From an uncultured Alphaproteobacteria bacterium (lineage in GTDB: Bacteria; Pseudomonadota; Alphaproteobacteria; Rs-D84): a stretch of 64,000 nucleotides of DNA. The position numbers were made by a program, and so were the translations under genes. The stretch spans positions 320,220 through 384,219 of the forward strand of contig CATLAX010000001.1 of NCBI GenBank assembly GCA_949878575.1. The letters run 5' to 3'. Positions 7,746 to 51,557 of the stretch are shown here, piece by piece. The stretch's first letter is position 1, and the number at the start of each line of letters is the position of its first letter. The notes beneath the pieces were generated by a model that saw nothing but the letters and a program-made list of their open reading frames with translations, was not told the DNA's origin and did no database searches.

Positions 7746-8055
7746 CCGTTTGCGTGTTTTTGTTTGATGTAAATTCGTTTGTTTTTTCGTCGATGTCATT
7801 GTTACGTTTGCGTCCGCGCGGGGTGCGGGCGGACAGGATGGCCCGGCGAATTTCTTTTTGGTTGGCCAGAGCCGGGGTACACCAGCCGACGTCGGGCCAT
7901 AAATTTCATATGATTTTGTTATAGGGCCGGGTGGCAGATAGCCCCACCTTTTTCTGATTGGAGATGAGAAGCAGGTAAAGAACCCATCATAAAAGCCACC
8001 CGGTAAAAATTAACCGCCAAAAGAAAGCCAGACGCATAATAAGGCTTTTAAAAGC

Positions 8056-8127
8056 GGTTGGAGGTTAAGAAACTATCATTCTAAGAAAATAGCCCGGTTT
8101 ATTCAATACATTCACCGGCCTCCAACC
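8056..8127 (+). repeat. Hairpin repeat element, copy 1 (GGTTGGAGG ... TTATTCAATACATTCAC ... CCTCCAACC)
   Basis: 9-bp terminal inverted arms ggttggagg/cctccaacc enclose a conserved internal motif. Confidence 0.8.
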
Positions 8128-8281
8128 AGCAAGGTCAGAGTGTTTTAACGTGCCCCGGCACGCTTAGAATGGAGGTTTCTTAAGCCTCACACTAATATCA
8201 TTAGTGCATATGAATAATATCATATATTTTTAATTGTATCAAGAAAAAAATAATGCAAAAACCATCCTCTAATTTTTAGAC

Positions 8282-8346
8282 GGTTGGGGGTAAGAACTAC
8301 CATTCAGAATAGCGCAGTTATTCAATATATTCACTGCCCCCCAACC
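8282..8346 (+). repeat. Hairpin repeat element, copy 2 (arms GGTTGGGGG/CCCCCAACC, compensatory change)
   Basis: Same internal motif ttattcaatatattcac. Both arms changed A->G / T->C so that pairing is preserved. Confidence 0.8.
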
Positions 8347-8459
8347 ATATGTTAGAGTATTTTTTATTTGAATGAATAGGTTCTTATGCCTATACCGGCA
8401 ACACACCGATACATAGACAATTATATATAATATTTTGCTGATTTCAATATATAAAAAGT

Positions 8460-8529
8460 TGGTCGGATGTTCTAAACTATATCAATGTGATAGAGTGGCT
8501 TATTCCGTATATTCGCCACCATCCGACCA
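8460..8529 (+). repeat. Hairpin repeat element, copy 3 (arms TGGTCGGATG/CATCCGACCA, compensatory changes)
   Basis: Internal motif ttattccgtatattcgcca. The arms differ from the consensus but remain complementary. Confidence 0.7.
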
Positions 8530-17978: not shown

Positions 17979-18069
17979 GCAATGTGCTCTTTTTATGCTA
18001 TAATTCATAATGCATCGGGTGACGCCCGGTGCGGGGTGTAGTAACCTCGTGTAGTTTTTTCTCCAACCC

Positions 18070-18135
18070 GGTTGGAGGGCTGTGATATATTTGAATAAGC
18101 AGCACTATTGCTACAGTAGTTACTAACCTCCAACC
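18070..18135 (-). repeat. Hairpin repeat element, copy 4 (inverted orientation)
   Basis: The reverse complement reads ggttggagg ttagtaactactgtagcaatagtgctgc ttattcaaatatatcacag ccctccaacc. It lies just upstream of XRE gene 18189. Confidence 0.8.
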
Positions 18136-18188
18136 GCCCATTCGTCACGGGCGGTGTTTTTAATTAAAAAAACAATGGAGTGTAAACT

Positions 18189-18500
18189 ATGAAAACACAA
18201 TTGAACAAGCGTCCGGCCGACCCGGCACGTCGTATAAAGGTACATCCTGTTATTGCGAAAAGATTTTCACACAGTCTGCCGCCGAATGTTTTGCTGTTTC
18301 GGGCGCGTCAAATGATGGGCGTATCGCGGCAGCTGTTGGCCGAAGAAATGGGAATTTCACGGGCTTTGTTACGTAAATATGAATGCAGTGAGGTAAAAAT
18401 ACCGGCAAGTTTTCTGTTAAAGATTTTTATGTTTGGTCTGGATTTTTGGACTGACGGAATTTACTGGAATATTGATGGTTCGGAACAAACACAGAAATAA
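18189..18500 (+). CDS. XRE-family HTH transcriptional regulator (small)
   Basis: HTH segment RARQMMGVSRQLLAEEMGISRALLRKYE. Confidence 0.6.
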   Translation: MKTQLNKRPADPARRIKVHPVIAKRFSHSLPPNVLLFRARQMMGVSRQLLAEEMGISRALLRKYECSEVKIPASFLLKIFMFGLDFWTDGIYWNIDGSEQTQK

Positions 18501-18502
18501 CA

Positions 18503-18528
18503 AAACGGCCCCGTGGGGCCGTTTTATT
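18503..18528. terminator. Bidirectional terminator shared by convergent genes
   Basis: aaacggccccgtggggccgttttattt. Confidence 0.7.
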
Positions 18529-21500
18529 TAGAACCGGTATGAACCAGACAGCTTTATCTTATGCATTTGGATGTCTGCATTGTACTGATAACGGTAATCC
18601 AGACCAACCTGAACACCGGTTACAGACAAGAATTCCATGCCGCCACCGATATTCGCCCACAGCGGGTCTATATCAACATCGTATTTTGTAAAGTGCTTTG
18701 CCGCCGCAAACTTGTACTTTGCATTGTCCGGCGCGCCCAGTACGTCATATTCCACGCCGATGGCCGCATACGGACGCAACTGGAACCATGCGGACGGATA
18801 TATGCGCTTTTGCGCGGTTAACGTATACCCCGGCGTTACAATCATGTACCCGTCTGATTTCAATTTCATGTAATCGTCGCCGGCGGCCTTTTCCTTAACG
18901 GAAAATCCAAAATTGTATCCGACGCGGGCGTAAACATTGCCGACAATGTATTGATTCAACCAGTCGTGCATTAACCCCCATTCCGATATTAGGCTAAACG
19001 CTGTTCCGTCGCCGTCAATTTTGGACATATATGTCTGGTCGCGCGTAACATCCAGCCAGTGCAGGTCCAGGAATGCGTTCCCGTACAGGCGCATTTTTGT
19101 CCCCAGATTCTGCATCATATATGCACCCAGACCAAAATTTGTGTCAGATACGGTCGTATTAACACTGCCCGCAATGTACTGGCCCGGCAGATAGCCCAGA
19201 TCCATCGCGTCGTCATTGTCGCCCGACATGTGGGAAACACGGCCCGCCAGTCCCAGAATCAATGTTTCCGTTTCCTGCCAGTCGTATCCGCCGGTAAAGC
19301 CGAATCGGTCTGATGCGACGCGTTTGCCGTCGTCAACCTTTTGGCGTGCCGTGCCGAAATCAAATTCGCCCCAGGCCTTGCGCAAATGACGGTTGCGGTT
19401 CCATATGAATTCATCCAGCATGCGGTCTTCAAAATCACGGAAAGACGTATGTTCGTTCAGAACGACGCTGCCGGCCATCTGTTCTATTTCACGCGGCTGG
19501 AACAGGCGGCTAAAGCGGGCCAGACCGCGACCATCACGCGTGGTGTTGTAGTATTCCATGCGGTTTAACAGTTCTTTGGACATTTCTTCCATGTTTGTGC
19601 CGGCGAATGCAACCGGTATCGCCTCTATCGGTGTGCGGTTATAGAATTTCGCATCGGCCAGACCGCCCGCAATCAAATCATCCAATGCACCGGCGGTTGT
19701 GTATTCACCCTTTGTATGGTCGTTTTCACGTTCAACGATGGGTTGAATCTTGAACACCTGTACCGGGCCGCCAAAGCGCGGATCAAATACCAGATACAGA
19801 CTGTCCGCGGTGCCGTCGCTGTTATAATCACGAACAGATATGTATGCCGGCAAATCGGTTCCCGTTTCATTCAGGCCCTGTGTCGGCTTGAAATAATCAA
19901 AGCATTTGCTGCCGTCCGCGTTGCAGAATTTTACGGCAACATTGCGGATTTTCGTACCTTCTTCGCGGATGCCGCCGTCTGCATGCAGCAGCCATATTGC
20001 GGTACCCTGATCAATCATGTCAAATATTTGTACGCCCATCTGGCCATCGTTTAACAGACCCGTATCATTGTTGATGTTGTCGCCCAGGTTTGTAATGAAC
20101 GTGCCGTTTACGGAAATCAAAGGCTCCGGATTCGGGTGTTTTGACGGGTCGTGTATAATCTGGCCCAGGGTTTTGTCATCGGCCAGGCTGACGTTCGCCC
20201 AATAGTCATATATTGTTGAATTCATGCCGCCACCCGCCGCATAGGGTAAAATCGCCATGTTCAGACCACTGTTGGAATCGTATGTATAGTTCCCCGTTAT
20301 TTTCATGTGTTCCAGACCGGTAAATTTCACGCCGCCTGATACGTTGCCCGTAACACCAACGTTTAGCCAGTTTGTTGCCGGCGTTGCCGCAACGGTCAAA
20401 TCTGTGGCGTCAATATTGCCGCCGACTGTGAAGTCACTGGTTCGCAGTGTTAGGCGCCCGGATTCCTGGGCCACGCCGGCAAAGGTTGCACTTGACGTTG
20501 TTATTGTATAATTGTTGGACATTACATTTATATCGCGTGCGTATACGGCGCCCGTATAATTTTGGCGCAACATGTTTTGCGAAAGTGCGCCGTTTGTTGT
20601 TAAACCCGCCCCCGCCAGTGTTGTTGTGCCGTTAAACATAGCATCCGCCACGTTTGTAATACCCGTGCCCGAATCCAGCGTTATGTCGCCGCCGGACATG
20701 ATGTTGTTCGCATCAATTCCGGTGCCGCCCGCCAGACGCAGCGTGCCGCTGTTTACGACGTTTGTCGTGGTTAGCTTGCCGCCGGCGGCAATGTCGGCAT
20801 CGGCCCCGGATGCCACGGTTACGTTTCCAGCGATTCGTGCGGCCCCCGTAAATACATAGTCAACCGATTCGCCCTGTGCTTTAAAATCACCCGTAACATT
20901 TAACGATTCGCCCGTAAAACGCCCGCTTTTTGTTATGTTCAGGCCGGCGGATTGCGCACCCTGGGTCATGTCGCCGTAAACGGATACCGGGCCGCCGATG
21001 TTTGTGTTCGCAACATCTATTGTTGCGGTTGCGCCGGATAAAACCGTCAATAGGCCAGTCGCGGTCAGTCTGTCGCCGATTATGGTCGTGGTGCCGGCAT
21101 TGGCGTTGATGGCGCCGGCATCAATGTTTGTTGCAACCAGTTTGGCCGTGCCGCTGTTGTTCAAATCCATCATGTCTATATAAGATGCATCAATGTTCAG
21201 CGCACCGGTATTCGCAACGGTTGCATCACCGCCCAGCGTGGCGATTTCCGCCGCGGTGATGTTTAATTCCCCGTTTGCAGTAATCCCGCCGTCAACAATG
21301 GCGTGTTTTGCAGACAATATGTTTAATGTCTTGCCGGATGACATTTCTATACCGCCGACAAAGATGCTTTTTCCGTCCGGTTGTGTCGTTAATGTGAACG
21401 TATCCGTATCTTTTACAATCAGGCCTGTCGCCGGGTCTGTTGACGGATTGTTAAACCATATTGTGTCATCAATGTGTATGGAATCCGTGGCGGCAATCTG

Positions 21501-23672
21501 TTGGCCGTGCATGATATATTGACCATTGCCGGACAAAGAGCCAACTTTTACCTCATTCCCATAGAACTCAATGGAGCCGGCATTGTTTGCCAGATCTTTG
21601 GCCGTTGTAACATCGCCCTTGATTGTTGTGGCGCTGTTTTCATTGTTTCCGAATATCAGGTGGCCCAGTCCCGCGGCATCAGCGTTGCCGTCCACCGTTA
21701 TAACATTATTGCCGGCTATGAATTGTGCCGTGCGGGAAACGTCGCTTTGCACGGCGGCGATATTGCCCCCGATTGTCATGCCGCCATCTGACGTTAATAC
21801 AAAATTTTGGGTGCCGTTGCCGCCGATGTTCACAGCGCCCGGCGCATCCGCGGGCAGGGCCTGTGTCGCGGATAGTGTTACGTCGCCGGCGATTTTTGTT
21901 TCGCCTGTTACGTGCAGATCCGTTGTTGCGTCGCCGATGTTTATGACGCCGGCCGTGGTATACAAATTGCCGTTTACCGTCATCGGGCCGATTAATGAGT
22001 TCAGATTCGTTGTGCCGCCATCGGCGCGTATCGCCCCCAGTGTTACGGCGCCCCCGTTTTTATCAGAGCCCAATATTGACAGCGTGCCGCCTTTGGTTGT
22101 GATTGTGTCTTTTATGTCAATGGTGCGGGCATTAATATTCATTTCACCGCTTTCGTTTGTGACAGTGCCATAAACAATTACCGCACCGGTCGGCGATGTG
22201 GCGGCGGAAATGTTCATATTGCCGGCATTTGTTATGGACGTTGCCGCGGTAAGCGTGCCGAATTTTACGCTGTCCTCGTTAAGTATGTTTATGGTTGCGC
22301 CGGAATTGCTGACAACCGCACCGTTTATCTGCATGTCGCTGGCGCCAGATATGGTGGTAATGCCAGAATTCCCGGTGATGCCGTTCGCTATTGTTATGGC
22401 GTCGCCGGCGGATGTATCTGTTGCCGTAATGTTTAAGTTTTTGCCGGAATTTGTAACGGAATTTGCAGAAATATTTTGCGCCGTTACGGTCATGTTTGCG
22501 TTCGTGTTGGAAACGGCATCAGACTGACCATTGATTATGTTTGTGTTCAGTGCCAAATCACCGTTTTTTACGATTACTGTAAAATTGTTCAATTTATTTG
22601 AAAACAGCTGCAGCCAGTTTTCATCCCCGCCGACATTCAGCGTCCCGGCGGACAGATAAAATTCGTTTGTAGTCTGCATCGCGCTGTTGTCAAAACCGTT
22701 CGCCAGGCTTAAGGCACCGGTAATATTCAATGTCAAATCACCGCTGTTTACAAAAGATGCGTTGTTGTGCGTGGCGTCTGTTCCGGTAACGGTCAGGCTG
22801 TTTGCACGGACAATCATAGTGCCGCCTTCGTTTGTCATGGCGCCGCCCGCGGTTACAGCGCTGCCTGTGGTAATATCCAACAGTTCGCCGCCCTTGTTTT
22901 CAATGACGCCGGCGGAATTTACGGCCCCGGATGTCTTTATGTACATTTTCCCGGCGTTGTTTTGCACGTTGCCGGATGTGACGGACGCGGCGTTAATGCT
23001 TGTTTCCGTGGCGGCCCCGGATGTCGTTATTGCCGCCGTGCCGGTATTCAGGCCGCCCGTCATTATAATATTGCCGTCCGAATCGAGATGGCCGATGGTC
23101 ATTTTTCCGCTGGTATTTTCAATGGCGCCGGTTGTCATGGAAACCGCGTTTATATCCAGTTCCATGGCCCCGGTATTGTTGCGAATCGCACCGGTGGATG
23201 TAAACGTGCCGATATTGGTCAAATCAAGCCGCGCCAGGTTATCAATGGATCCCACGGTCATGTTTGTTGGGGAAACGCCGTCGCTTTGGCCTATTTTCAG
23301 ATAGTTCCCAGCCTCTACCTGCAACATGTTTGCTATTTTTATCGGGCCGTCGGATGCGATGGTAAATCCGTTTGCCGTGCCGGCCGCCGTTTCATTTAAT
23401 ATAAATATCCATCCCGTATCGGCGCCCGTATTGTGTCCGACAATCATTCCGCCCGCTATATCAATGCCGTTTGTGCCGACATTCATGTTTTTGGCGACGG
23501 TTCCGTTGTTTGGATCGTTTCTGACAACAACACTGGATGTGTCCGTGTCAATGTTTAATGTCGTATCCGTTACGGCAATGGTGCCGTTTGCATCCGGATC
23601 CAAATAAGTGGGGACCGCCATAGCACCGAACGGCGCCATGCAGAAAATAAAAGAAAATAGCTTTTTTATCAT
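18528..23672 (-). CDS. Giant autotransporter (type Va) adhesin-like protein, about 1715 aa
   Basis: Signal peptide MIKKLFSFIFCMAPFGAMA. About 1300 aa of T/G/N/A-rich imperfect repeats (beta-helix-like passenger). A C-terminal ~280-aa beta-barrel region ends ...LSGSYRF (terminal aromatic). Confidence 0.75.
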   Translation of the reverse strand: MIKKLFSFIFCMAPFGAMAVPTYLDPDANGTIAVTDTTLNIDTDTSSVVVRNDPNNGTVAKNMNVGTNGIDIAGGMIVGHNTGADTGWIFILNETAAGTANGFTIASDGPIKIANMLQVEAGNYLKIGQSDGVSPTNMTVGSIDNLARLDLTNIGTFTSTGAIRNNTGAMELDINAVSMTTGAIENTSGKMTIGHLDSDGNIIMTGGLNTGTAAITTSGAATETSINAASVTSGNVQNNAGKMYIKTSGAVNSAGVIENKGGELLDITTGSAVTAGGAMTNEGGTMIVRANSLTVTGTDATHNNASFVNSGDLTLNITGALSLANGFDNSAMQTTNEFYLSAGTLNVGGDENWLQLFSNKLNNFTVIVKNGDLALNTNIINGQSDAVSNTNANMTVTAQNISANSVTNSGKNLNITATDTSAGDAITIANGITGNSGITTISGASDMQINGAVVSNSGATINILNEDSVKFGTLTAATSITNAGNMNISAATSPTGAVIVYGTVTNESGEMNINARTIDIKDTITTKGGTLSILGSDKNGGAVTLGAIRADGGTTNLNSLIGPMTVNGNLYTTAGVINIGDATTDLHVTGETKIAGDVTLSATQALPADAPGAVNIGGNGTQNFVLTSDGGMTIGGNIAAVQSDVSRTAQFIAGNNVITVDGNADAAGLGHLIFGNNENSATTIKGDVTTAKDLANNAGSIEFYGNEVKVGSLSGNGQYIMHGQQIAATDSIHIDDTIWFNNPSTDPATGLIVKDTDTFTLTTQPDGKSIFVGGIEMSSGKTLNILSAKHAIVDGGITANGELNITAAEIATLGGDATVANTGALNIDASYIDMMDLNNSGTAKLVATNIDAGAINANAGTTTIIGDRLTATGLLTVLSGATATIDVANTNIGGPVSVYGDMTQGAQSAGLNITKSGRFTGESLNVTGDFKAQGESVDYVFTGAARIAGNVTVASGADADIAAGGKLTTTNVVNSGTLRLAGGTGIDANNIMSGGDITLDSGTGITNVADAMFNGTTTLAGAGLTTNGALSQNMLRQNYTGAVYARDINVMSNNYTITTSSATFAGVAQESGRLTLRTSDFTVGGNIDATDLTVAATPATNWLNVGVTGNVSGGVKFTGLEHMKITGNYTYDSNSGLNMAILPYAAGGGMNSTIYDYWANVSLADDKTLGQIIHDPSKHPNPEPLISVNGTFITNLGDNINNDTGLLNDGQMGVQIFDMIDQGTAIWLLHADGGIREEGTKIRNVAVKFCNADGSKCFDYFKPTQGLNETGTDLPAYISVRDYNSDGTADSLYLVFDPRFGGPVQVFKIQPIVERENDHTKGEYTTAGALDDLIAGGLADAKFYNRTPIEAIPVAFAGTNMEEMSKELLNRMEYYNTTRDGRGLARFSRLFQPREIEQMAGSVVLNEHTSFRDFEDRMLDEFIWNRNRHLRKAWGEFDFGTARQKVDDGKRVASDRFGFTGGYDWQETETLILGLAGRVSHMSGDNDDAMDLGYLPGQYIAGSVNTTVSDTNFGLGAYMMQNLGTKMRLYGNAFLDLHWLDVTRDQTYMSKIDGDGTAFSLISEWGLMHDWLNQYIVGNVYARVGYNFGFSVKEKAAGDDYMKLKSDGYMIVTPGYTLTAQKRIYPSAWFQLRPYAAIGVEYDVLGAPDNAKYKFAAAKHFTKYDVDIDPLWANIGGGMEFLSVTGVQVGLDYRYQYNADIQMHKIKLSGSYRF

Positions 23673-23759
23673 ATTTTTTTGTTTATTTTTGGTTTTGATT
23701 GTGCTCTTATTGTTCAACAAATTGGTAGTATAAGGCAAGTTAAAAAATCTTGTTTGTAA

Positions 23760-25112: not shown

Positions 25113-25319
25113 ATGCGGGTATCGCCCGATATATTGCTTTATATAAAATATGCGGCCGCGGTGGCGATTTTAATCGTGATATTTTTGGCGCCCGCATGGC
25201 TGGCGCGCCAGACCAAAAAAGGCAAATTTGACATGGGGGTTGTCCGTATCGCCAGCTGGCTGTTCGGGTGGACCGGTGTCGGATGGCTGGTCGCGCTGTA
25301 TTGGGCGGTGCGTAAATAG
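25113..25319 (+). CDS. Small membrane protein (2 TM)
   Basis: 68 aa with two hydrophobic segments. A bidirectional terminator follows. Confidence 0.35.
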   Translation: MRVSPDILLYIKYAAAVAILIVIFLAPAWLARQTKKGKFDMGVVRIASWLFGWTGVGWLVALYWAVRK

Positions 25320-25320
25320 T

Positions 25321-25353
25321 AAAACAGGCGAGCAAATGCCCGCCTGTTTTTAT
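25321..25353. terminator. Bidirectional terminator
   Basis: aaaacaggcgagcaaatgcccgcctgtttttatttt. Confidence 0.7.
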
Positions 25354-25700
25354 TTTGCGGCGATAATGGATTGAGCCAGTTCCATAATAAGTTTCCGTTG
25401 TTCCCGGTTCATTTTATACATTAATTTGATTACCTCTGTTATGTCGCGGTCGTGTGCGTATGTTTGTGACACACCGTCCAGCAGCTGGCCGACGGTCATT
25501 TCAAAAACATTTGCTATTTGTATCAGGGTACCCACATATATTCTGTTGCCGCCTGTTTCGTATTTTTGTACCTGTTGAAATGTAACGTTCAGATGTTTTG
25601 CCAAACCTTTTTGAGACATGCCCATGCGTCGCCGTGATATTGCAATAATTTCCCCGATGCGAATATCGTATTCGGACGGTGTGCTTTTTTTACCCGCCAT
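25350..25700 (-). CDS. XRE-family HTH transcriptional regulator
   Basis: SRRRMGMSQKGLAKHLNVTFQQVQKYETG HTH. It is paralogous in type to 18189..18500. Confidence 0.7.
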   Translation of the reverse strand: MAGKKSTPSEYDIRIGEIIAISRRRMGMSQKGLAKHLNVTFQQVQKYETGGNRIYVGTLIQIANVFEMTVGQLLDGVSQTYAHDRDITEVIKLMYKMNREQRKLIMELAQSIIAAK

Positions 25701-25756
25701 TTTGCCTTCCCCTGTTGTGTTATATGTTAAATAAAAACCACTTGAAAAATTCAGGT

Positions 25757-25833
25757 GGTTGGAGGTTCATACTACACAAGGTATAGCGCGCTTATTAGCC
25801 GACCATAGGCCGGGGTATTCACGCCCTCCAACC
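25757..25833 (+). repeat. Hairpin repeat element, copy 5 (long-loop subtype)
   Basis: ggttggagg ... gcttatt[insert]tattcacg ccctccaacc. It is followed by the second conserved hairpin at 25900..25928. Confidence 0.75.
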
Positions 25834-25899
25834 CGATTAAGGTATTGAAGGGCTGCGTTTTTTATATCTCTGCATATTTGATACAGCCATACAGAGAAA

Positions 25900-25928
25900 A
25901 CCTTGTGGGGATATGAAGCCCCATAATG
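25900..25928 (+). repeat. Second conserved hairpin of the composite unit (ccttgtGGGGatatgaaGCCCCataa)
   Basis: It recurs at 26139..26166 with a compensatory change (AGGG/CCCT). Confidence 0.6.
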
Positions 25929-26017
25929 GATGGTTAGTTCCATTACTTTAATGATTATACTAAATTTATGAAAAACATTCAAATAAAAAAGCCTCAAATA
26001 ATATTGAGGGCTGGAGG

Positions 26018-26087
26018 TTCATATTACACAAGGTGTATAGTGCTTATTATAATGGCATGCCATTAATATTCAGACACCCTCCAACCC
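26018..26087 (+). repeat. Hairpin repeat element, copy 6 (long-loop subtype)
   Basis: gggctggagg ... gcttatt[atggcatgccat]taatattcagacac cctccaaccc. Confidence 0.7.
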
Positions 26088-26138
26088 GTAAAGATTGAAG
26101 GTGTTTTACATATGGATACTTAAAATGTATCCGCTATA

Positions 26139-26166
26139 ACCTTGTAGGGATATGAAACCCTATAAC
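26139..26166 (+). repeat. Second conserved hairpin, copy 2 (ccttgtAGGGatatgaaACCCTataa)
   Basis: Covaries with 25900..25928. Confidence 0.6.
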
Positions 26167-26252
26167 AGTACGTTACTACTTGCTACAATGGGCAGTATAT
26201 CCTAAAAAACGGTGCAAAGCCAGCATAAAAAATCCCCCGTTCGGGGGATTTG

Positions 26253-26813
26253 TTACGAATCGTCTTCCATTTCATCATCATCGTCGCCGTCGGCGGCGTT
26301 AAGGTCTATTTCTTTGGGAATGCCCAAAATATCCTCTATCTTGTCCGATGCCTCGTCCAGGTCTATTTTATGCAGGACCGCAAATTCTTGGGCCATGCGT
26401 TCCAGTGCGCGCAGATATAGCTGGCGTGCCGAAAACGTCATGGTGTCCGTCGCACTGCGCCGCTGCAGGTCGCGTACAACCTCGGCCAGTTTCATGGGGT
26501 CGCCGGAATTAATATTTTCCTCGTACTGGGCGGCACGGCGCGCCCAAATCATGCGCTTTGCACCGGCCTTGCCCTTGGCGGCGGCAATCGCTTCATCCAT
26601 CTTTTTGGCGGATGTCAACGGACGCAGTCCCGATATTTCCGCGCGTTCAACCGGCACGCGCAGGGTCATGTGGTTGCGCTCAAAATCAATGACCAGCATT
26701 TTTATTTTCTGGTCGCCGATGGTCTGTTCCTCTATTCGCAACAGTTTTCCGACACCCTGGGTCGGGTACACTACATATTGTCCTGTTTTAAAATCTAACT
26801 TCTTGCTTGCCAT
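26253..26813 (-). CDS. CarD/CdnL-family RNA-polymerase-binding transcription factor
   Basis: YVVYPTQGVGKLLRIEEQTIGDQKIKMLVIDF... N-terminal RNAP-interaction (Tudor-like) domain and an acidic C-terminal tail. Confidence 0.85.
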   Translation of the reverse strand: MASKKLDFKTGQYVVYPTQGVGKLLRIEEQTIGDQKIKMLVIDFERNHMTLRVPVERAEISGLRPLTSAKKMDEAIAAAKGKAGAKRMIWARRAAQYEENINSGDPMKLAEVVRDLQRRSATDTMTFSARQLYLRALERMAQEFAVLHKIDLDEASDKIEDILGIPKEIDLNAADGDDDDEMEDDS

Positions 26814-37596: not shown

Positions 37597-37673
37597 CGGG
37601 GCGTAGCTCAGTCTGGTAGAGTGCTTGCTTTGGGAGCAAGATGTCGCATGTTCGAATCATGTCGCCCCGACCA
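37597..37673 (+). tRNA. tRNA-Pro (anticodon TGG)
   Basis: Cloverleaf: acceptor CGGGGCG/CGCCCCG, anticodon stem CTTGC/GCAAG, loop TTTGGGA, T-arm GTTCGAATC, 3' CCA encoded. Confidence 0.9.
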
Positions 37674-37934: not shown

Positions 37935-40900
37935 ATGCGGATATTTGGTTTTGATTTGGGAATTGCAAGCATCGGCTGGGCGGTTGTTGACATAGAAAAA
38001 GAAAACAATAACCCAGAGGTGGAACGTGCCACTGTTGGTAAAATACAGCAGTCTGGGGTGCGTATTTTTAGTGTCGCAGAAAACCCAAAGGACGGTTCTT
38101 CATTGGCGGCACCGCGCCGCGAGAAGCGGCGGGTCCGTCGTGCGTTGCGCAGGAAGGCGCTGCGAATGAAAGAAATTCGCGCATTGTTGGAAAATAGCGG
38201 CCTGGGCAACCAAAATATCGTTGTTAATTCTGATGATATTGATGTCTGGGCTTTGCGTGCCGAAGATGCCTTTTGCCGCAAGTTGTCGCCACGTGAACTG
38301 TCGCGTGTACTGGTTCATATGGCCAAACATCGTGGGTATAAGTCAATGCGTAAGTCCGCAGAGGAAAACGATAAAGAAACCGGAAAGGTCCTTGTTTCAA
38401 TCGCGCGAAATCGCGAACGTATGGGCGAGTATAAAACAATGGCCCAAATGATTTATAAGAGCGGCTGCAATGATGCAAAAAAATATCGCAATGGTGATGG
38501 CGTATATGATAATTCAATCCCGCGGGAAGAAATAGAGAGGGAACTGGATTTAATTTTTGACGCTCAGCAAAAATATGGGTTGTTTACGCCAGAATTACTG
38601 GAACAATACAAAAAAATCGCATTTCGTGTGCGGCCGATGCAGTCTGTTGGTAAAATGGTTGGCGGGTGTACGTTAGAGCCGAATTGTTTGCGCGCACCGA
38701 AAGAGGCGCCCACGGCAGAATTATTTGTGGCGCTGACCCGTATAAACAACATGAAAATTGTTATTGATGGTGAAGTTCGCTCTGTAAATGATGAAGAACG
38801 GACGGCCATCCTGGATTTGTTGCGCAAGACGCAAACGGTTAAATATAAAACATTGCATAACAAAATATGGAAGGGGCAAGACGTCGTTTTTCGCGGTGTA
38901 AAAGAAGAAACTCAAGATTTTTATTCCATGGCCGGATGGCATAAATTAAAGAAAATCTTGAATGATGCCGATATGGCGGATATGCGAATGCTTGACCGGA
39001 TTATGAAGGTTGTTGCAACCCAGAAAGATGAAGCGGCAATAGCAAAAGAATTACGACGCAAGAAAGTCCCAGAAAAATATATTGCAAAATTAAAGGAATT
39101 GTCTACGTCCAAATTCATAAATCTGTCTTTGCAGGCCTTGTATAAAATTGTCCCGGAAATGATGCGCGGGCTGACGTATGACAAGGCTTGTGCGGCGGTC
39201 GGCTATGATTTTAAAACCAAAGTATCCGGGGATGTAAAGGTGGATAATGGCTGCATTGCAGAGATTTCAGAATGGACGCGTGTCCCGGTTGTTAATCGTA
39301 CTGTAGCACAGTTTCGCAAGGTGTACAATGCGCTGGTCCGGAAATATGGCGCCCCGGATCAGGTGAATTTAGAGGTTGGACGCGAATTAAAGAATAACTT
39401 TGATGATCGTAAAAAAATAGAACGTCAACAGAATGAAAATCGCGATAAAAATGATAAAGCGCGCGCAGAATATGAGGGGCTGGTCGGGCGCAAGGCAACG
39501 GCCAAAGAAGTCTTAAAATATAAACTGTATCAGGACCAAAACTGCCAATGCATGTATTCTGGCGAGGCGATTGATTTAGCGCATCTGGATGATTATGAGA
39601 TTGATCATATCTTGCCGTATTCGCGGTCGTTGGATAATTCTTATACCAACAAGGTTTTGGTTAAATACACAGAAAATCAGGCAAAAGGCAACAAGACGCC
39701 ATATGAATATCTTGGCAATACCGCACGCTGGGACGCGTTTGTCGGGCGTGTGTCCGCAATCAAGACTGCCTTGGGGGGACGTAAGATTGCAAATCTATTG
39801 AACAAAGATTTTGAAGCAAAAGAAGAGGATTTTCGCGAACGCAATGCAAATGATAACGCGTATGCATCCCGCCATATCCGCCAGATTTTAAGCATCGCTT
39901 TCCCGGAATTGCGTGTTGATGTTCGCGCCGGGGCATTGACACATTATTTGCGCGGGCAATGGGGGCTGGAAAAATCGCGTACGGAATCAGACAGGCACCA
40001 TGCCCAGGATGCGATTGTTGTCGCCTGTGCAACACAGGGGATGGTGCAGTATTTGTCAACAATATCTGGGTTGTTTGAAAATAAACGTAACGAGAAGGAT
40101 AAACCGTGGTGGAATAGGTTAAAACAAAACATTCAAGAACCGTGGGATGGATTTCGTGCCGATGTTTTGCGGTCGTTGGATGAAGTGTTTGTTTCGCGCA
40201 CGGTGCGTGGCAAGGCAACGGGCTCGGCGCATAAGGATACCATCAATTCACCAAAAACTAATAAAGGCAGCATGATTTTGCCGCGTGGACGCGCCGATAA
40301 AGACAATATGTTCCGCATGGATATCTTTAAAAAAGACGGAAAATATGTGGTTGTGCCAATATTTGTGGCAGACACGGTTGACAAAAAACGCCAAGATATA
40401 TTTTACCCACAACCCGCCAAGGCGCATAATCCGGTCGCAGTTGATGATACTTATGAATTTGTTATGACATTGCACAAGGATGATTATATCAAGATCACGA
40501 CAGCAGATGACAAAATATATGAGGGGTATATTGTTCAATGCAATATGCCTGTTGGACAGTTTGTTATAAGAAGTACTGATAATTCCGCGGTATTTTCTGT
40601 CAAAACAGATACCTTTGAACCAGACAATTTTATTGTCATAGATGGTAATTTGTGTAAAGTTAAGGATTATGAATGCGGTAAATTGCGTGCAGTGCGCATG
40701 AATGGTGTTGTTGAGGAAATTGATGCCATGAAGAAGCACATGCGTAGTGGCGAGGTCGCGAAAAAGCAAATACAGACAGTAGATAAATATGAAAAGCGTG
40801 ATGCGCAAAAAACGATAAATGTTGGTACTTTTAAAAACTTGCAAAAATTTCATATTGATGTTTTGGGCGATAGGTCAGAGGTTAAATCTGAACATCGTGC

Positions 40901-41006
40901 GCCGGTCTGCGCTATAAAACCGCAATCAGAAAAAAGAAAAGGAAGGAAGCAACCTAAAAGGAATAAAAATGGGGTGGCGAATCCTTCAACTAACGAAACC
41001 GTGTAA
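37935..41006 (+). CDS. cas9: Cas9, type II-C, compact (1023 aa)
   Basis: RuvC-I is MRIFGFDLGIASIGWAVV (catalytic Asp). An Arg-rich bridge helix (RREKRRVRRALRRKALR) follows. The HNH region is YEIDHILPYSRSLDNSYTNKVLV...N. RuvC-III is HHAQDAIVVACATQG. Confidence 0.95.
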   Translation: MRIFGFDLGIASIGWAVVDIEKENNNPEVERATVGKIQQSGVRIFSVAENPKDGSSLAAPRREKRRVRRALRRKALRMKEIRALLENSGLGNQNIVVNSDDIDVWALRAEDAFCRKLSPRELSRVLVHMAKHRGYKSMRKSAEENDKETGKVLVSIARNRERMGEYKTMAQMIYKSGCNDAKKYRNGDGVYDNSIPREEIERELDLIFDAQQKYGLFTPELLEQYKKIAFRVRPMQSVGKMVGGCTLEPNCLRAPKEAPTAELFVALTRINNMKIVIDGEVRSVNDEERTAILDLLRKTQTVKYKTLHNKIWKGQDVVFRGVKEETQDFYSMAGWHKLKKILNDADMADMRMLDRIMKVVATQKDEAAIAKELRRKKVPEKYIAKLKELSTSKFINLSLQALYKIVPEMMRGLTYDKACAAVGYDFKTKVSGDVKVDNGCIAEISEWTRVPVVNRTVAQFRKVYNALVRKYGAPDQVNLEVGRELKNNFDDRKKIERQQNENRDKNDKARAEYEGLVGRKATAKEVLKYKLYQDQNCQCMYSGEAIDLAHLDDYEIDHILPYSRSLDNSYTNKVLVKYTENQAKGNKTPYEYLGNTARWDAFVGRVSAIKTALGGRKIANLLNKDFEAKEEDFRERNANDNAYASRHIRQILSIAFPELRVDVRAGALTHYLRGQWGLEKSRTESDRHHAQDAIVVACATQGMVQYLSTISGLFENKRNEKDKPWWNRLKQNIQEPWDGFRADVLRSLDEVFVSRTVRGKATGSAHKDTINSPKTNKGSMILPRGRADKDNMFRMDIFKKDGKYVVVPIFVADTVDKKRQDIFYPQPAKAHNPVAVDDTYEFVMTLHKDDYIKITTADDKIYEGYIVQCNMPVGQFVIRSTDNSAVFSVKTDTFEPDNFIVIDGNLCKVKDYECGKLRAVRMNGVVEEIDAMKKHMRSGEVAKKQIQTVDKYEKRDAQKTINVGTFKNLQKFHIDVLGDRSEVKSEHRAPVCAIKPQSEKRKGRKQPKRNKNGVANPSTNETV

Positions 41007-41874
41007 ACTATCGGTAAAACAAAAACAATTATTTTACGAATCAGATGATACCAAAACAACGATTCCGATAGAGGATTTATCGGTCGTTGTTTTGGAAACC
41101 GGCTTTGTGCAACTAACGGGACATGTCTTGTCAGAATTTGCGGCAAACGATGTTGTGCTGCTGACCTGCGATGCATCGCATTTGCCGGCGGGAACCTTTT
41201 TCCCGTTTCACGATAACTCGCGTTATTCGGAAATGGCGCATATTCAAATTTCGGCCAGCGAACCATTAAAAAAGCGTGTCTGGCAATCGGTTGTGCAGCA
41301 AAAGATTCTGAACCAGTCGGCGGTATTGCATGCATTTGGAACAGAAAACGCATTGTCTGAAATTGCAAAACGCGTACAAAGCGGCGATAGTGATAATCGT
41401 GAGGCCCATGCGGCGCAATTATATTGGCGATTGTTGTTTGGTGATTTTACGCGACGTGATGATGCGAACATTATAAATAAAGCACTAAACTATGGATATG
41501 CCATTGTGCGCGGCTGCGTGGCGCGTAATATTGTTGCGTCCGGATTATTGCCATGTTTTGGTATCCATCATGATAATCAGCTGAATCAATTTAATCTGGT
41601 TGATGACATGATGGAACCGCTGCGCCCGTTTGTGGATTATAGTGTGGCAAAGTTGGACTTGTCCGATTGCTCAGACTTAACACCAGAATTAAAAAATAAA
41701 CTAATATCAGTATTATTATGTAACGCAAATGTGGGGGGTGAAGCAATATCGTTGCTTAAGTGTGCAGAAATGATGTCGGCATCACTGTCCAAGGTATTTA
41801 GACAAAAGGATTGTCGTTTATTGGTGTTGCCGGTGTTTGATAATTCTCTGCTGGATATGGAGGATTTTGACTAA
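40969..41874 (+). CDS. cas1: Cas1 integrase
   Basis: 301 aa. MGWRILQLTKPCKLSVKQKQLFYESDDTKTTIPIEDLSVVVLE is a typical type II Cas1 N-terminus. Its start overlaps the cas9 3' end by 38 nt. Confidence 0.93.
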   Translation: MGWRILQLTKPCKLSVKQKQLFYESDDTKTTIPIEDLSVVVLETGFVQLTGHVLSEFAANDVVLLTCDASHLPAGTFFPFHDNSRYSEMAHIQISASEPLKKRVWQSVVQQKILNQSAVLHAFGTENALSEIAKRVQSGDSDNREAHAAQLYWRLLFGDFTRRDDANIINKALNYGYAIVRGCVARNIVASGLLPCFGIHHDNQLNQFNLVDDMMEPLRPFVDYSVAKLDLSDCSDLTPELKNKLISVLLCNANVGGEAISLLKCAEMMSASLSKVFRQKDCRLLVLPVFDNSLLDMEDFD

Positions 41875-42203
41875 TGGCGCAATATGGGGAACGATTTATG
41901 AGAATGATAGTATTTTTTGATTTACCAACACTGACAAAGCAAGACAGAAAACAAGCGTCCAAATTTCGTAATGCCTTGTTAAAGGATGGGTACTATATGA
42001 TGCAACTGTCTGTTTATTCAAGGATTTGTAAGGGTATGGCACAGGTTGAAAAACATGCCGGACGCCTAAAATGCTTGATTCCGCCCAGTGGAAGTGTTAG
42101 ACTGATGACGGTAACAGAAAAACAGTTCGCTGATATGGAAATATTGGTCGGCGAATCGAAAAAACAAGAAAAAATAGGTGCAAAGCAACTTGTTATGTTT
42201 TAG
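41874..42203 (+). CDS. cas2: Cas2
   Basis: MRMIVFFDLPTLTKQDRKQASKFRNALLKDGYYMMQLSVYSRI. The ATG overlaps the cas1 stop. Confidence 0.9.
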   Translation: MAQYGERFMRMIVFFDLPTLTKQDRKQASKFRNALLKDGYYMMQLSVYSRICKGMAQVEKHAGRLKCLIPPSGSVRLMTVTEKQFADMEILVGESKKQEKIGAKQLVMF

Positions 42204-42227
42204 TTTTTCTTTAAAGAATTACAAAAT

Positions 42228-42256
42228 AACCCGCTATATTCAGCGGGTTGTTTTGT
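42228..42256. terminator. Hairpin terminator between cas2 and the array (usable from either strand)
   Basis: aacccgctatattcagcgggtt + gttttgtt. Confidence 0.55.
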
Positions 42257-42260
42257 TGGT

Positions 42261-42956
42261 ATTATATCAAAACCAATTTGGAAAGCAATCTACAACCGTA
42301 TCGTCTTGTTTGGGAACATTGGAAAGATTATATCAAAACCAATTTGGAAAGCAATCTACAACTATGCCTCGTTCTCAATATCGTGACTTTATATTATATC
42401 AAAACCAATTTGGAAAGCAATCTACAACCACATTCATCGTCAAATACGCCAAGACGGTATTATATCAAAACCAATTTGGAAAGCAATCTACAACCGTAAA
42501 TTGTTTGGTACGCGCTTGTTATCTATTATATCAAAACCAATTTGGAAAGCAATCTACAACGTGAAGACCTCTTTTATGACTTTAAACAGTATTATATCAA
42601 AACCAATTTGGAAAGCAATCTACAACAAGAGTGTTGGCGTGAAATTCAGTTGCCTTATTATATCAAAACCAATTTGGAAAGCAATCTACAACGACCGATT
42701 TGACTGGTGGCATCCGGAATTTATTATATCAAAACCAATTTGGAAAGCAATCTACAACCTACCCGATATTCTTAAATGATGACCATCTATTATATCAAAA
42801 CCAATTTGGAAAGCAATCTACAACATTGATTGGCATAAATGCCGTTGCTCGTAAATTATATCAAAACCGATTTGGAAAGCAATCTACAACCGCTTGTTGG
42901 GGCTGTATGTTTCCTGCAATATTATATCAAAACCAATTAGAAAAACAATCTATAGA
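42261..42956 (-). CRISPR. CRISPR array: 11 x 36-bp repeats, 10 x 30-bp unique spacers. It is transcribed on the minus strand.
   Basis: Repeat (plus strand) ATTATATCAAAACCAATTTGGAAAGCAATCTACAAC with an exact 66-bp period from 42261. Repeat 10 has one SNP (CCGATTT). Terminal repeat 11 (42921..42956) is degenerate. The reverse complement GTTGTAGATTGC...TTTTGATATAAT matches the II-C repeat style and carries an extended -10. Confidence 0.95.
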
Positions 42957-43198
42957 GTTGTGGGTTATTATTAAGAGCTATTTTATTGTATAAAAAAATC
43001 GGTTCGGAGTTTGCCGAACCGATTCATCGCCTTCTCATCTCATTTATAATATTACATAATTTTTATGTCTTTTCCAGTATTATTTTTTTTGCCAGTGCTG
43101 TGAAAACAGTTGTTTTATAGTTAAAATTTGTAATAATTATGAAACGATAATAATCCCATATGATTTTTGCCGCCCGGGGCGGTAAAATTATGTAAAAC

Positions 43199-51480: not shown

Positions 51481-51557
51481 TGGCGCGCCCTGCAGGATTC
51501 GAACCTGCGACCTGCGGATTAGAAATCCGATGCTCTATCCAGCTGGGCTAAGGGCGC
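51481..51557 (-). tRNA. tRNA-Arg (anticodon TCT)
   Basis: Reverse complement GCGCCCTTAGCCCAGCTGGATAGAGCATCGGATTTCTAATCCGCAGGTCGCAGGTTCGAATCCTGCAGGGCGCGCCA. The anticodon loop is TTTCTAA, the T-loop GTTCGAATC, and CCA is encoded. Confidence 0.9.

Follow-up and report, generated by a model that had tools for sequence, protein, structure and literature searches.

Tandem C4/CI-like RNA units upstream of an XRE-type regulator gene in an uncultured gut alphaproteobacterium

C4- and CI-type RNAs, known from phages P1, P7 and P4, are the textbook but rare case of immunity controlled by RNA alone, and phages P1 and P7 carry differing C4 codes. In phage P1, two 5' hairpins, the second with site a1 in its loop and site b1 just 3' of it, are followed by a further hairpin and by a three-way junction, in which a junction strand (a') is complementary to a1 and the loop of the second hairpin (b') to b1. 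Two hairpins of phage P1 also involve the closing stem: one competes for its 5' arm, and the other, after c4, re-uses its 3' arm. Regulation in P1 is exerted at a2/b2, a second site pair that covers the ribosome-binding site downstream. For the upstream a1/b1, the P1 record still marks the role as 'putative'. CI of phage P4 pairs with seqA and seqC, causing premature transcription termination (PMC4825925), and both C4 and CI are cut by RNase P (PMC5499578). IsrK of Salmonella Gifsy-1 has been described as a structural homologue of the P4 seqA RNA; from the isrK promoter come a short isoform, formed by some of the transcripts, and longer read-through, with the stable STnc1160 downstream (PMC4825925). 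A further RNA, sRNA-Xcc1 (RF02221), is portrayed in the descriptions consulted as trans-acting, with five tandem copies in Xylella.

Here we describe two tandem units in a 64-kb stretch of DNA (the window) from an uncultured alphaproteobacterium. The units are an expanded chromosomal variant of this known kind of RNA. We favour, at a probability of about 0.65, the reading that the tandem pair constitutes C4/CI-type antisense RNA modules that have a common a/b code and lie upstream of an XRE gene, the mechanism being one we infer. In the resources searched, this large chromosomal family, with a separate pairing code for every dispersed copy, is not annotated.

Comparison with known antisense RNAs

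The order of parts in the units is that of the C4 RNAs of phages P1 and P7 with their a1/b1 regions (Rfam RF01695 and RF03163, clan CL00128), from the paired 5' hairpins to the three-way junction. The pairs UUCAUA(U)/(A)UAUGAA and (C)ACAAGGU/ACCUUGU(G) match the P1-type a/b rule, and the competing hairpin and the re-used 3' arm have their counterparts in the units as well. Nevertheless, there are clear differences. The units lack a2/b2, so the P1 mechanism is not simply transferable. Unlike the C4 of phage P1, they have a canonical intrinsic terminator directly after the junction, a closing stem of 9 bp rather than about 17, and a large, conserved AU-rich loop in hairpin A. They are chromosomal, occur in many copies and lie by housekeeping genes, whereas the C4 of phage P1 serves phage immunity and has icd/ant-type genes downstream. 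A phage origin was considered and rejected: a search of 2.9 million viral contigs gave only five matches, and the viral unit examined is an ordinary one, ahead of an ORF whose N-terminus is hydrophobic.

The precedent for the mechanism proposed below is CI of phage P4, where, as in the units, a leader-derived RNA is complementary to an upstream site of the same transcript. P4 differs in having a second target, seqC, downstream, the like of which was not seen for the units, and in having one module, for replication genes, where the units belong to dozens of modules with differing codes and unrelated genes. The isrK model (RF01394) spans, on phage P1, the a1/b1 hairpins and the next hairpin, a region that corresponds to hairpins H1, H2 and H3 of the units. 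The terminator of the units follows the three-way junction and not, as in IsrK, the 5' domain, and what comes after H3 is a run of A rather than of U.

At gathering thresholds, Rfam returned only two tRNAs from the window, and its C4, c4-a1b1 and isrK models gave no match there at E up to 10. As a positive control, the Rfam scan of phage P1 gave 68.8 and 51 bits, and the C4 and c4-a1b1 matches there show the same topology as the units. Our own covariance model of the junction, R1, found no match in P1 c4. The likeness to C4 is therefore architectural, and sequence homology is not demonstrated. The sole Rfam signal came from sRNA-Xcc1, at 26.7 bits (25749-25833, minus strand) and 26.3 bits (8048-8127, minus strand), both far below the gathering threshold of 53 bits; the typical short-loop copy at 18070 was not matched. 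sRNA-Xcc1 and the units share the same three-way junction and the motifs GAAUAC/AAUAA, CUUGU and UGAaCC. According to the descriptions consulted, sRNA-Xcc1 likewise forms tandem arrays and precedes, in the same orientation, a gene (symE, an ORF6N gene). Neither a 5' domain nor a/b pairings appear in those descriptions, which place sRNA-Xcc1 in integrons of Xanthomonadaceae and in the APSE phage of the gammaproteobacterium Hamiltonella, whereas the units occur in gut Alphaproteobacteria. A literature search for non-coding RNA of Enterousia found nothing.

The units and their relatives

A repeat search of the window places the two units 252 nt apart, start to start (25729 and 25981). The first-pass annotation had proposed two tandem composite units here, and this holds: the 24-nt core CTGGAGGTTCATAYTACACAAGGT occurs at 25759 and 26011 only, where chance would give none. 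Their location had been given as 25757-26166; the real extent is larger, reaching to about 26204 on one side and about 25729 on the other. Measured from predicted sigma-70-like promoter to intrinsic terminator on the minus strand, the units span about 26199-25985 and 25982-25729, and each is predicted to encode a single two-domain folded RNA, about 210-220 nt long (Table 1). The pair is flanked by the XRE gene and a CarD-like gene; the window neighbours are tsf, tyrS, pyruvate:ferredoxin oxidoreductase (PFOR), eno and carD, and no IS or transposase gene was seen in the surrounding gene content. The locus is identical in two further assemblies.

Each unit contains, as had been claimed and as direct sequence match bears out, an element with a nested palindrome and a second hairpin. 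The elements, armed by GGTTGGAGG/CCTCCAACC (with GGCTGGAGG on the plus strand in the second), enclose the palindromes CCGGCC..GGTCGG and ATGGCATGCCAT. At the RNA level, the GGTTGGAGG element corresponds to a three-way junction made of a 9-bp closing stem, P1 (GGUUGGAGG/CCUCCAACC), and hairpins A and B, of which hairpin A has a conserved GAAUA..AAUAA loop. The second hairpin belongs to a conserved 5' domain of three hairpins, H1, H2 and H3, and is H2 among them. It is present in both units, as the first-pass annotation had it; its 'atatgaa' loop, on the other hand, is not free, being complementary to TTCATA(T) beside the closing stem P1 of its own unit. That annotation saw neither the RNA of the opposite strand, nor the two covarying long-range pairings, nor the architecture of C4/c4-a1b1 (phage P1) and CI/seqA (phage P4).

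Table 1. Features of the two tandem units, the downstream gene and the other copies in the window
Feature	Positions	Strand	Basis or remark
Unit 1 promoter-like site, TTGAAT-17-TATAAT	25954-25982	-	10/12 consensus matches; R2 aligns family -10
Unit 1 hairpin H1 (AAUGG..CCAUU)	25925-25944	-	RNA fold, R2 alignment
Unit 1 hairpin H2 (GGGG-CUUCAUAU-CCCC)	25907-25922	-	Sequence, R2; earlier second hairpin; plus strand GGGG-atatgaa-(G)CCCC
Unit 1 a1-like site UUCAUA, H2 loop	25912-25917	-	Complementary to J at 25766-25771
Unit 1 b1-like site CACAAGGU	25900-25907	-	8-nt Watson-Crick match to hairpin B loop 25775-25782; duplex -11.8 kcal/mol
Unit 1 hairpin H3 (CUCUG..CAGAG)	25868-25896	-	Sequence, fold
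Unit 1 anti-P1 segment (CCUUCAAUACC region)	25843-25852	-	Pairs with P1 5' arm, -9.9 kcal/mol
Unit 1 three-way junction	25757-25833	-	R1 39.6 bits, E 1.8e-9
Unit 1 P1	25825-33 with 25757-65	-	
Unit 1 hairpin A, with inserted hairpin CCGGCC..GGUCGG	25788-25824	-	
Unit 1 hairpin B	25772-86	-	Contains b' ACCUUGUG (25775-82)
Unit 1 J = a' UAUGAA	25766-71	-	
Unit 1 predicted intrinsic terminator (AACCACCUGAA..UUCAAGUGGUU, then U-run)	25729-25760	-	-9.1 kcal/mol; AACC in common with P1 3' arm
Unit 2 candidate -10 box TATACT	26194-26199	-	R2 aligns to family -10 (TATAAT); -35 weak (TGGCTT, 26217-26222); weak promoter, not called by consensus scan
Unit 2 hairpin H1, 5' domain	26162-26186	-	R2 alignment; RNAfold
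Unit 2 hairpin H2 (AGGG-UUUCAUAU-CCCU)	26146-26161	-	Sequence, R2; earlier second hairpin; plus strand AGGG-atatgaa-(A)CCCT
Unit 2 a1-like site UUCAUAU, H2 loop	26150-26156	-	Complementary to J 26018-26024
Unit 2 b1-like site ACAAGGU, directly 3' of H2	26139-26145	-	Complementary to hairpin B loop 26028-26034; duplex -9.9 kcal/mol
Unit 2 hairpin H3 (GGAUAC..GUAUCC)	26114-26132	-	Sequence, fold
Unit 2 anti-P1 segment CCUUCAAUC	26093-26101	-	Pairs with P1 5' arm; -11.2 kcal/mol, z -4.7
Unit 2 three-way junction	26009-26086	-	R1 33.3 bits, E 1.5e-7; absent from R1 seed alignment
Unit 2 P1	26078-26086 with 26009-26017	-	
Unit 2 hairpin A, with inserted palindrome AUGGCAUGCCAU	26040-77	-	
Unit 2 hairpin B	~26025-37	-	Contains b' ACCUUGU (26028-34)
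Unit 2 J = a' AUAUGAA	26018-24	-	
Unit 2 predicted intrinsic terminator (GCCCUCAA..UUGAGGC, then U6)	25985-26011	-	Terminator scan (26009-25992); -8.4 kcal/mol; GCC in common with P1 3' arm
Downstream gene, 116-aa XRE/HTH_3 regulator	25350-25700	-	SD (GGGGAAGG) and ATG start 56 nt after junction
Paralogous unit	8056-8224	-	Junction 8056-8127, 5' domain 8118-8224, promoter-like site 8242-8214; R1 70.0, R2 64.9 bits
Paralogous unit, covarying P1 (GGUUGGGGG/CCCCCAACC)	8282-8430	-	Junction 8282-8346, promoter-like site 8447-8420; R1 66.1, R2 46.6 bits
Paralogous junction alone (P1 GGUCGGAUG/CAUCCGACC)	8461-8528	-	R1 69.9 bits; no R2 match for a 5' domain
Paralogous unit	17994-18165	+	5' domain 17994-18079, junction 18070-18135, terminator to ~18165; R1 76.2, R2 40.4 bits; XRE-like gene (HTH_3) follows at 18189-18500

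The homologue search that the first-pass annotation had called for was made with R1 and gave 124 matches in 100 sources (the window and 99 loci), or 123 once one antisense duplicate was removed. These relatives, more than 120 in number, belong to gut Alphaproteobacteria (Ca. Enterousia and its allies). Four of the further copies lie in the window itself, which thus holds six, about one per 10 kb. Across the family the 9-bp arms of P1 are nearly invariant. According to RNAalifold and pair counts over the 124 matches, 96% of cells in the junction helices are paired, compared with 86% in shuffles, although the alignment was fitted to the model and the pairing percentages are somewhat inflated by this; double changes occur at 15 of the 20 junction pairs (236 cells), a level reached by none of 500 shuffles. 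In 46 5' domains, H1, H2, H3 and an anti-P1 hairpin were predicted independently, with compensation at 13 of 19 pairs. A compensatory change, G:C to A:U, had been noted between the H2 hairpins of the two units; it is confirmed, and the corresponding pair of the family (columns 59:72) varies in the same manner (GC 33, AU 10). R2, a model of the 5' domain that was built without either unit, detects both, at 35.2 and 28.1 bits.

On the minus strand, the R1 scores of the two junctions are 39.6 and 33.3 bits; on the plus strand they fall to 18.0 and 12.1 bits. The junction helices contain 129 G.U cells as opposed to 25 A.C cells, which implies that one strand is under selection. A terminator-like hairpin follows 113 of the 123 elements on the modelled strand, but only 23 of 122 on the other. 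To judge from the R1 scores, this G.U/A.C asymmetry and the positions of predicted promoters and terminators, the functional strand is the minus strand. The first-pass view that this is a structured RNA family rather than a MITE accords with these results: the helices are compensated, the 5' domain is detected by a separate model, and promoter and terminator signals fall on one strand.

Two other identities were discarded. The arms read GGTTGG..CCAACC on both strands and never in the AAC..GTT order of R''/R', as an integron attC would. A 58-aa ORF over unit 1 (25943-25767) was called in one assembly but not in the identical DNA of the second, and the corresponding frame of unit 2 has stops, so a small protein was ruled out.

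Pairing codes and the predicted switch

Two long-range pairings covary across the family and reach 40-60 nt beyond the GGTTGGAGG/CCTCCAACC arms. The first joins the H2 loop (a1-like) to junction strand J (a'), and the second joins the segment just 3' of H2 (b1-like) to the loop of hairpin B (b'). The a1-like and b1-like sites are 3-6 nt apart, the distance being the 3' arm of H2, and the b1-like site lies about 38-50 nt upstream. A perfect complement of at least 7 nt to the hairpin B loop is found in the copy's own upstream region in 89 of 123 cases, as against 4.9% for non-cognate regions; likewise, J is complementary to its own H2 loop in 109 of 122 cases, and to non-cognate ones in 1.9%. 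The a/b sequences thus match within their own copy while varying between dispersed copies, with 107 distinct hairpin B loops in 123. Among 81 copy pairs in 13 genomes, only three have both codes in common, and all three are tandem neighbours, units 1 and 2 included.

Apart from the units themselves, no trans target with both an a and a b site was found in the 64-kb window. Downstream a2/b2-like sites were sought within 150-160 nt, where complementarity to the hairpin B loop is about the same for cognate and non-cognate regions. A slight enrichment of J-type downstream targets (12 of 119, against 2%) was not accepted as a signal. CACAACAGGGG, in the XRE leader, was rejected as a target of b' because the pairing would need a 2-nt bulge.

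A further set of pairings concerns P1. A segment ahead of the junction, anti-P1, can pair with the P1 5' arm over 7 bp or more in 106 of 122 copies, compared with 12 of 122 for a control window, and the terminator takes 3-4 nt of P1 in 101 of 113. When P1 retains these common bases, the mean energy of the terminator hairpin drops in strength from -9.4 to -2.8 kcal/mol. In the fold of lowest energy for unit 1 (-78.9 kcal/mol), anti-P1 is paired and the terminator is complete; forcing P1 gives -65.5 kcal/mol, before the long-range duplexes of -4.8 and -11.8 are counted; such fold energies take no account of pseudoknot geometry. Four segments stand in a row: anti-P1 (CUCCAAC), the two arms of P1 (5' before 3') and the 3' arm of the terminator (GGUU). 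Numbered 1 to 4, they could pair either as 1:2 with 3:4 or as 2:3. On the modelled folds, this layout would be that of a four-segment attenuator preceding genes for XRE regulators, secreted proteins and methylases.

We propose that, when P1 forms, presumably aided by both long-range pairings, the terminator would lose 3-4 bp and transcription could read through into the gene behind it. If, instead, the anti-P1 hairpin sequesters the P1 5' arm, the full terminator would form, and only a short RNA would be made. By analogy with CI of P4 and C4 of P1, the released junction RNA, possibly cut by RNase P, might bind a1/b1 on nascent transcripts of the same code. Such occupation in trans would block the cis fold and favour termination, which would amount to gene-specific negative feedback. 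In a tandem pair of one code, the upstream unit may, by the same analogy, supply additional repressor RNA for the downstream leader. An RCY follows P1 in 104 of 121 copies and U stands at position -1 in 69 of 123, a pattern consistent with putative RNase P processing as in the phage RNAs. The promoters and 3' ends, like the processing and the read-through, are predicted from sequence.

A Shine-Dalgarno sequence and an ORF on the same strand follow 100 of the 123 elements, mostly about 25-60 nt past the junction. Among the 84 proteins encoded downstream, at least 24 belong to the XRE-type HTH class, two are DNA methylases, and other products are secreted proteins. Unit 2 and the array at 8056-8528, in contrast, have no gene behind them, and for such units a role as cis-attenuator alone is insufficient. 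These units count in favour of another reading, that we are dealing with stand-alone genes for trans-acting sRNAs, in which the hairpin B loop and J would be the seeds, masked by the upstream sites. The position ahead of genes would then be incidental. Every unit does have its own promoter-like site and terminator, and the weak match to sRNA-Xcc1, trans-acting and tandem as far as the descriptions consulted go, points the same way. We nevertheless consider this reading improbable, at odds of perhaps a few to one against, since the ORFs follow at a near-constant short distance, the overlap of terminator and P1 and the conserved anti-P1 would be needless in a plain sRNA gene, and both variable segments have their partners in their own unit only, as searches of the 64 kb and of the 8-kb loci indicate.

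The overlap of the P1 3' arm with the terminator, in competition with anti-P1, is also the classic expression platform of a riboswitch, and the strong conservation of the hairpin A loop and of the P1 sequence would suit an aptamer. On that account, the junction with its GAAUA..AAUAA loop would bind a ligand that stabilises P1 and prevents the terminator, as an ON switch. We regard this as highly improbable: the downstream genes have no metabolic theme, the pseudoknot partners are hypervariable, which is unusual for ligand pockets, six copies lie within 64 kb, and antisense RNAs that act without a ligand have the same architecture. Least credible of all is a MITE or REP-like DNA repeat with the GGTTGGAGG/CCTCCAACC arms as terminal inverted repeats and stems at the DNA level, for, although many intergenic copies occur per genome, some of them in tandem, and the arms are nearly invariant, the interiors of the copies have diverged strongly, three helices showing compensatory changes, G.U far exceeds A.C, promoters and terminators are strand-specific, covarying pairings extend well outside the 'inverted repeats', no transposase gene is nearby, and the locus is the same in the other assemblies.

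Implications for Enterousia and its allies

The antisense-module reading of the tandem pair invites a wider one, which we put forward only tentatively and hold to be possible rather than probable: that the Enterousia group turned a phage-type immunity RNA into genome-wide, gene-by-gene regulation, with private a/b addresses and feedback confined to the same address. If so, dozens of leaders would be built on one scaffold, tandem duplicates with the same address would be additional doses, and nature would have provided a library of RNA-RNA attenuators that are orthogonal to one another. Should the private codes indeed prevent cross-talk, they would offer ready-made orthogonal RNA regulators.

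For the phage systems, the family is a natural collection of over 120 variants that covary in a1/b1 and a'/b' and lack a2/b2, so that the upstream interaction is isolated. This interaction is moreover tied to the competition among anti-P1, P1 and terminator, so that what a1/b1 does can be tested directly. The scaffold, missed by Rfam annotation, is here in chromosomal use ahead of ordinary regulators and surface proteins, and bears on the control of surface proteins and XRE regulators in uncultured gut Alphaproteobacteria.

Tandem units and their three-way junction

The 552-nt spacer at 25701-26252, with an XRE/HTH_3 gene on one side and a CarD-like gene on the other, contains two tandem units with a period of 252 nt (family D8 in a repeat search of the window), and their 24-nt core occurs in the window only at 25759 and 26011, where none is expected by chance. 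The first-pass annotation had described two such units, each with a GGTTGGAGG...CCTCCAACC element that holds a nested palindrome and each followed by a second hairpin; all of these are present. The same DNA recurs unaltered in two further assemblies of an uncultured gut alphaproteobacterium. Four further elements with the same arms occur in the window (8056, 8282, 8461 and 18070), two of them with covarying arms (GGTTGGGGG/CCCCCAACC and GGTCGGATG/CATCCGACC). The proposed search for homologues in related genomes proved productive: when one genome from each species was scanned for the pattern, at least 119 stretches were returned and, among the matches listed, nearly all belong to metagenome-assembled genomes of Candidatus Enterousia and other gut Alphaproteobacteria, sampled from humans, ruminants, birds, horses and mice. 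Typical members also turn up in bins with Bacteroidota names, namely L004, L033, L047 (from a bin named Muribaculaceae) and L014 (from one named Bacteroides fragilis). At L014, the element and the protein encoded behind it are almost identical to their counterparts at L007 and L060, two loci on alphaproteobacterial contigs. Mis-binning of these four contigs, rather than transfer, is the probable explanation.

Forty aligned copies fold as a three-way junction that comprises a 9-bp closing stem (P1, distinct from phage P1), a hairpin A whose loop, GAAUAUAUUGAAUAA, is conserved, a hairpin B (CUAU...AUAG) whose loop is hypervariable, and a 7-nt junction strand, J (UUNNNAA). What had been called a long-loop subtype is an extra hairpin inserted in the loop of hairpin A. 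A covariance model of the junction (R1), whose building set excluded both units, gives 39.6 and 33.3 bits for them when run on the minus strand, and 18.0 and 12.1 bits on the plus. Across 124 matches, paired cells make up 96% of the total versus 86% in shuffles, and 15 of the 20 pairs show double-sided changes (236 cells); no shuffled or slid control came near the observed pairing or compensation. The units are real, and the earlier reading of them as a structured RNA family was right. It was the strand that had to be reversed: they had been written on the plus strand, and since the junction helices hold 129 G.U cells against 25 A.C cells, the RNA sense is minus, where R1 also scores higher.

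Features of the tandem units and of other loci in the window
Feature	Position	Strand	Detail
XRE/HTH_3 gene	25350-25700	minus	
CarD-like gene	26253-26813	minus	
GGTTGGAGG...CCTCCAACC elements	25757-25833; 26009-26086		
Second hairpins	25907-25922; 26146-26161		GGGG/CCCC; AGGG/CCCT
R2 matches	26077-26204; 25824-25964	minus	35.2 bits; 28.1 bits
Unit 1 a-type pair	25912-25917 with 25766-25771	minus	UUCAUA with UAUGAA
Unit 1 b-type pair	25900-25907 with 25775-25782	minus	CACAAGGU with ACCUUGUG
Unit 2 a-type pair	26150-26156 with 26018-26024	minus	UUCAUAU with AUAUGAA
Unit 2 b-type pair	26139-26145 with 26028-26034	minus	ACAAGGU with ACCUUGU
Sigma-70-like promoter sites	25982-25954; 8447-8420; 8242-8214; 8571-8542	element strand (minus)	
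68-aa ORF	25113-25319	plus	
1736-aa ORF	18528-23738	minus	
tRNA genes	37597-37670; 51484-51557	plus; minus	
Cas9-size ORF	37935-41006	plus	judged by size
Cas1-size ORF	40969-41874	plus	judged by size
CRISPR array	42258-42960		11-12 repeats of 36 nt (ATTATATCAAAACCAATTTGGAAAGCAATCTACAAC), period 66 nt

The 5' domain and its pairings with the junction

The copies share an order of parts ahead of the junction: -10 box, H1, H2, a variable segment, H3, an A-rich stretch and CUCCAAC(C), which lies only a few bases 5' of P1. In the family, H2 has the form GGGG-cUUNNNAA-CCYC. RNAalifold, unprompted, returns H1, H2, H3 and a CUCCAAC:GUUGGAG hairpin, with 13 of the 19 pairs compensated. A covariance model of this 5' domain (R2), again built without either unit, matches both. 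The second hairpin of the first-pass annotation is part of this domain, which pairs with the junction, and the compensatory change noted there recurs in the family, 33 sequences having G:C as the outer H2 pair and 10 having A:U. The copy at 8461-8528 (minus), first of a three-unit array with no gene behind it, is a three-way junction alone (R1, 69.9 bits; no R2 match), with a promoter-like TTAGCA-18-TATGAT immediately upstream.

Two long-range pairings connect the domains. In 89 of 123 copies, a stretch of 7 nt or longer, lying roughly 38-50 nt upstream of the junction, is perfectly complementary to the hairpin B loop of the same copy (4.9% of non-cognate pairs), and the H2 loop is complementary to J in 109 of 122 (1.9% of non-cognate pairs). 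Between the two upstream sites stands the 3' arm of H2, which sets them 3-6 nt apart. Hairpin B loops come in 107 distinct sequences and J strands in 51, so these pairings covary massively. Both the a and b codes are common to just 3 of 81 copy pairs (13 genomes), all of them tandem neighbours: the present units and those at two other loci, L074 and L088. In the present units, P1, H2 and hairpin A have diverged through compensatory changes and a single code has been retained. Such a pattern fits, without proving, both trans action between same-code units and selection against cross-talk among dispersed ones.

A switch-like, terminator-linked layout before genes

A hairpin and U-run directly follow the element in 113 of 123 copies on the modelled strand, versus 23 of 122 on the other. 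In 101 of these 113, the final 3-4 bases of the P1 3' arm (AACC) also serve in the 5' arm of the terminator; withholding the shared bases weakens the mean hairpin energy from -9.4 to -2.8 kcal/mol. The upstream CUCCAAC segment (anti-P1) pairs with the P1 5' arm over at least 7 bp in 106 of 122 copies, where a control window gives 12 of 122. The anti-P1 hairpins of the two units come to -9.9 and -11.2 kcal/mol. Four segments thus stand in order (anti-P1, P1 5' arm, P1 3' arm, terminator 3' arm), and they can pair either as 1:2 and 3:4, which would leave the terminator intact, or as 2:3, in which P1 would form and the terminator be crippled. In the nested minimum-energy fold of unit 1 (-78.9 kcal/mol), the anti-P1 hairpin and the complete terminator form together with a long a/b duplex. 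Forcing P1 to form gives -65.5 kcal/mol, an energy that excludes the two long-range duplexes (-4.8 and -11.8), which a nested model cannot hold; once these are added, the two states are predicted to be similar in stability.

A Shine-Dalgarno sequence and ORF lie downstream of 100 of the 123 elements, mostly ~25-60 nt past the junction. The downstream proteins (n=84) include at least 24 small XRE-type HTH proteins, 2 DNA methylases and 4 with Flg_new repeats; many of the remainder have signal-peptide-like N-termini, as read by eye, and no Pfam match. Convergent with the XRE gene at 25350-25700 is a 68-aa ORF with a weak Imm_superinfect (PF14373) match on record, possibly the remnant of a phage-type immunity pair. 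Likewise, a 1736-aa ORF, for which Pfam gives no match at E up to 0.01, converges with the XRE-like gene (18189-18500) behind the unit at 18070, and a similar ORF of 1714-1736 aa sits at the corresponding place in loci L001 and L002. Elsewhere in the window lies a CRISPR-Cas locus (37935-42960), which from its repeat and gene sizes we take to resemble type II-C.

Given the fold, strand, two long-range pairings, competing segments and position before genes established here, the sequence suggests that P1 and the long-range pairings would together prevent termination, so that the XRE gene is transcribed, and that the anti-P1 hairpin would permit it. By the precedents of P4 and phage P1, the junction RNA would be released, possibly through RNase P, and would bind the a1/b1-like sites of same-code nascent transcripts, causing termination. 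Consistent with RNase P processing, 104 of 121 copies have RCY after P1 and 69 of 123 have U at position -1. Orphan units do exist, as expected of a stand-alone trans-acting sRNA, but the fixed distance to the ORF and the overlap of P1 with the terminator speak against one. A riboswitch would account for the layout, though not for the gene set or the hypervariable pseudoknots. A MITE is disfavoured by the covariation, strand asymmetry and strand-specific signals.

Relation to C4 and CI antisense RNAs

At gathering thresholds, Rfam finds two tRNAs in the window and nothing else. Permissive scans bring up sRNA-Xcc1 at two copies on the minus strand (26.7 and 26.3 bits; threshold 53) and no match at the copy at 18070. 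In the literature, sRNA-Xcc1 is described upstream of symE in integron cassettes of Xanthomonas and, in APSE phages, upstream of an ORF6N gene; in Xylella it occurs five times in tandem, and in another strain of Xylella it adjoins matches to C4 and isrK.

The most telling comparison is with phage P1 (L128, NC_005856 47900-49000), whose record annotates "putative a1", "putative b1", a 77-nt c4 RNA, and a2 and b2 before icd, and in which Rfam detects C4 (68.8 bits) and c4-a1b1 (51 bits). As in the family, a1 lies within the loop of the second of two 5' hairpins with b1 just 3' of it, and in c4, b' lies within the second-hairpin loop of a three-way junction and a' within its junction strand. Like the family, phage P1 also has a strong hairpin (-22.1 kcal/mol, z -4.65) that competes for the closing stem's 5' arm, and another past c4 that re-uses the 3' arm, with a2 in its loop (both read in L128 positions 418-550). 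Cataloguing of the c4 and c4-a1b1 motifs, for Proteobacteria and phages, dates from 2010 (PMC2864571). In P4, CI RNA has pairing partners both upstream (seqA) and downstream (seqC), leading to premature termination, and IsrK of Gifsy-1 has been called a structural homologue of the seqA RNA (PMC4825925); C4 and CI are among the substrates of RNase P (PMC5499578).

Nevertheless, the family differs from these systems. No a2/b2- or seqC-like target was found downstream of its elements, a canonical terminator is fused to the P1 stem, the closing stem is short and nearly invariant in sequence, and the hairpin A loop is AU-rich and conserved. The present units are chromosomal, among tsf, tyrS, PFOR, eno and carD, and the window carries six copies per 64 kb, yet 2.9 million viral contigs yielded 5 matches. 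Given these differences, and with no reciprocal covariance-model match between the family and phage P1 C4, we file it by its predicted C4/CI-like working and its architecture, not as a demonstrated Rfam member. The units are a previously undescribed, expanded chromosomal form of C4/CI-type antisense RNA with upstream target sites; a literature search on Enterousia non-coding RNA found nothing on the family. Here the poorly understood a1/b1 interaction stands isolated and is tied to an attenuator layout, and the family may constitute a natural set of orthogonal RNA regulators.
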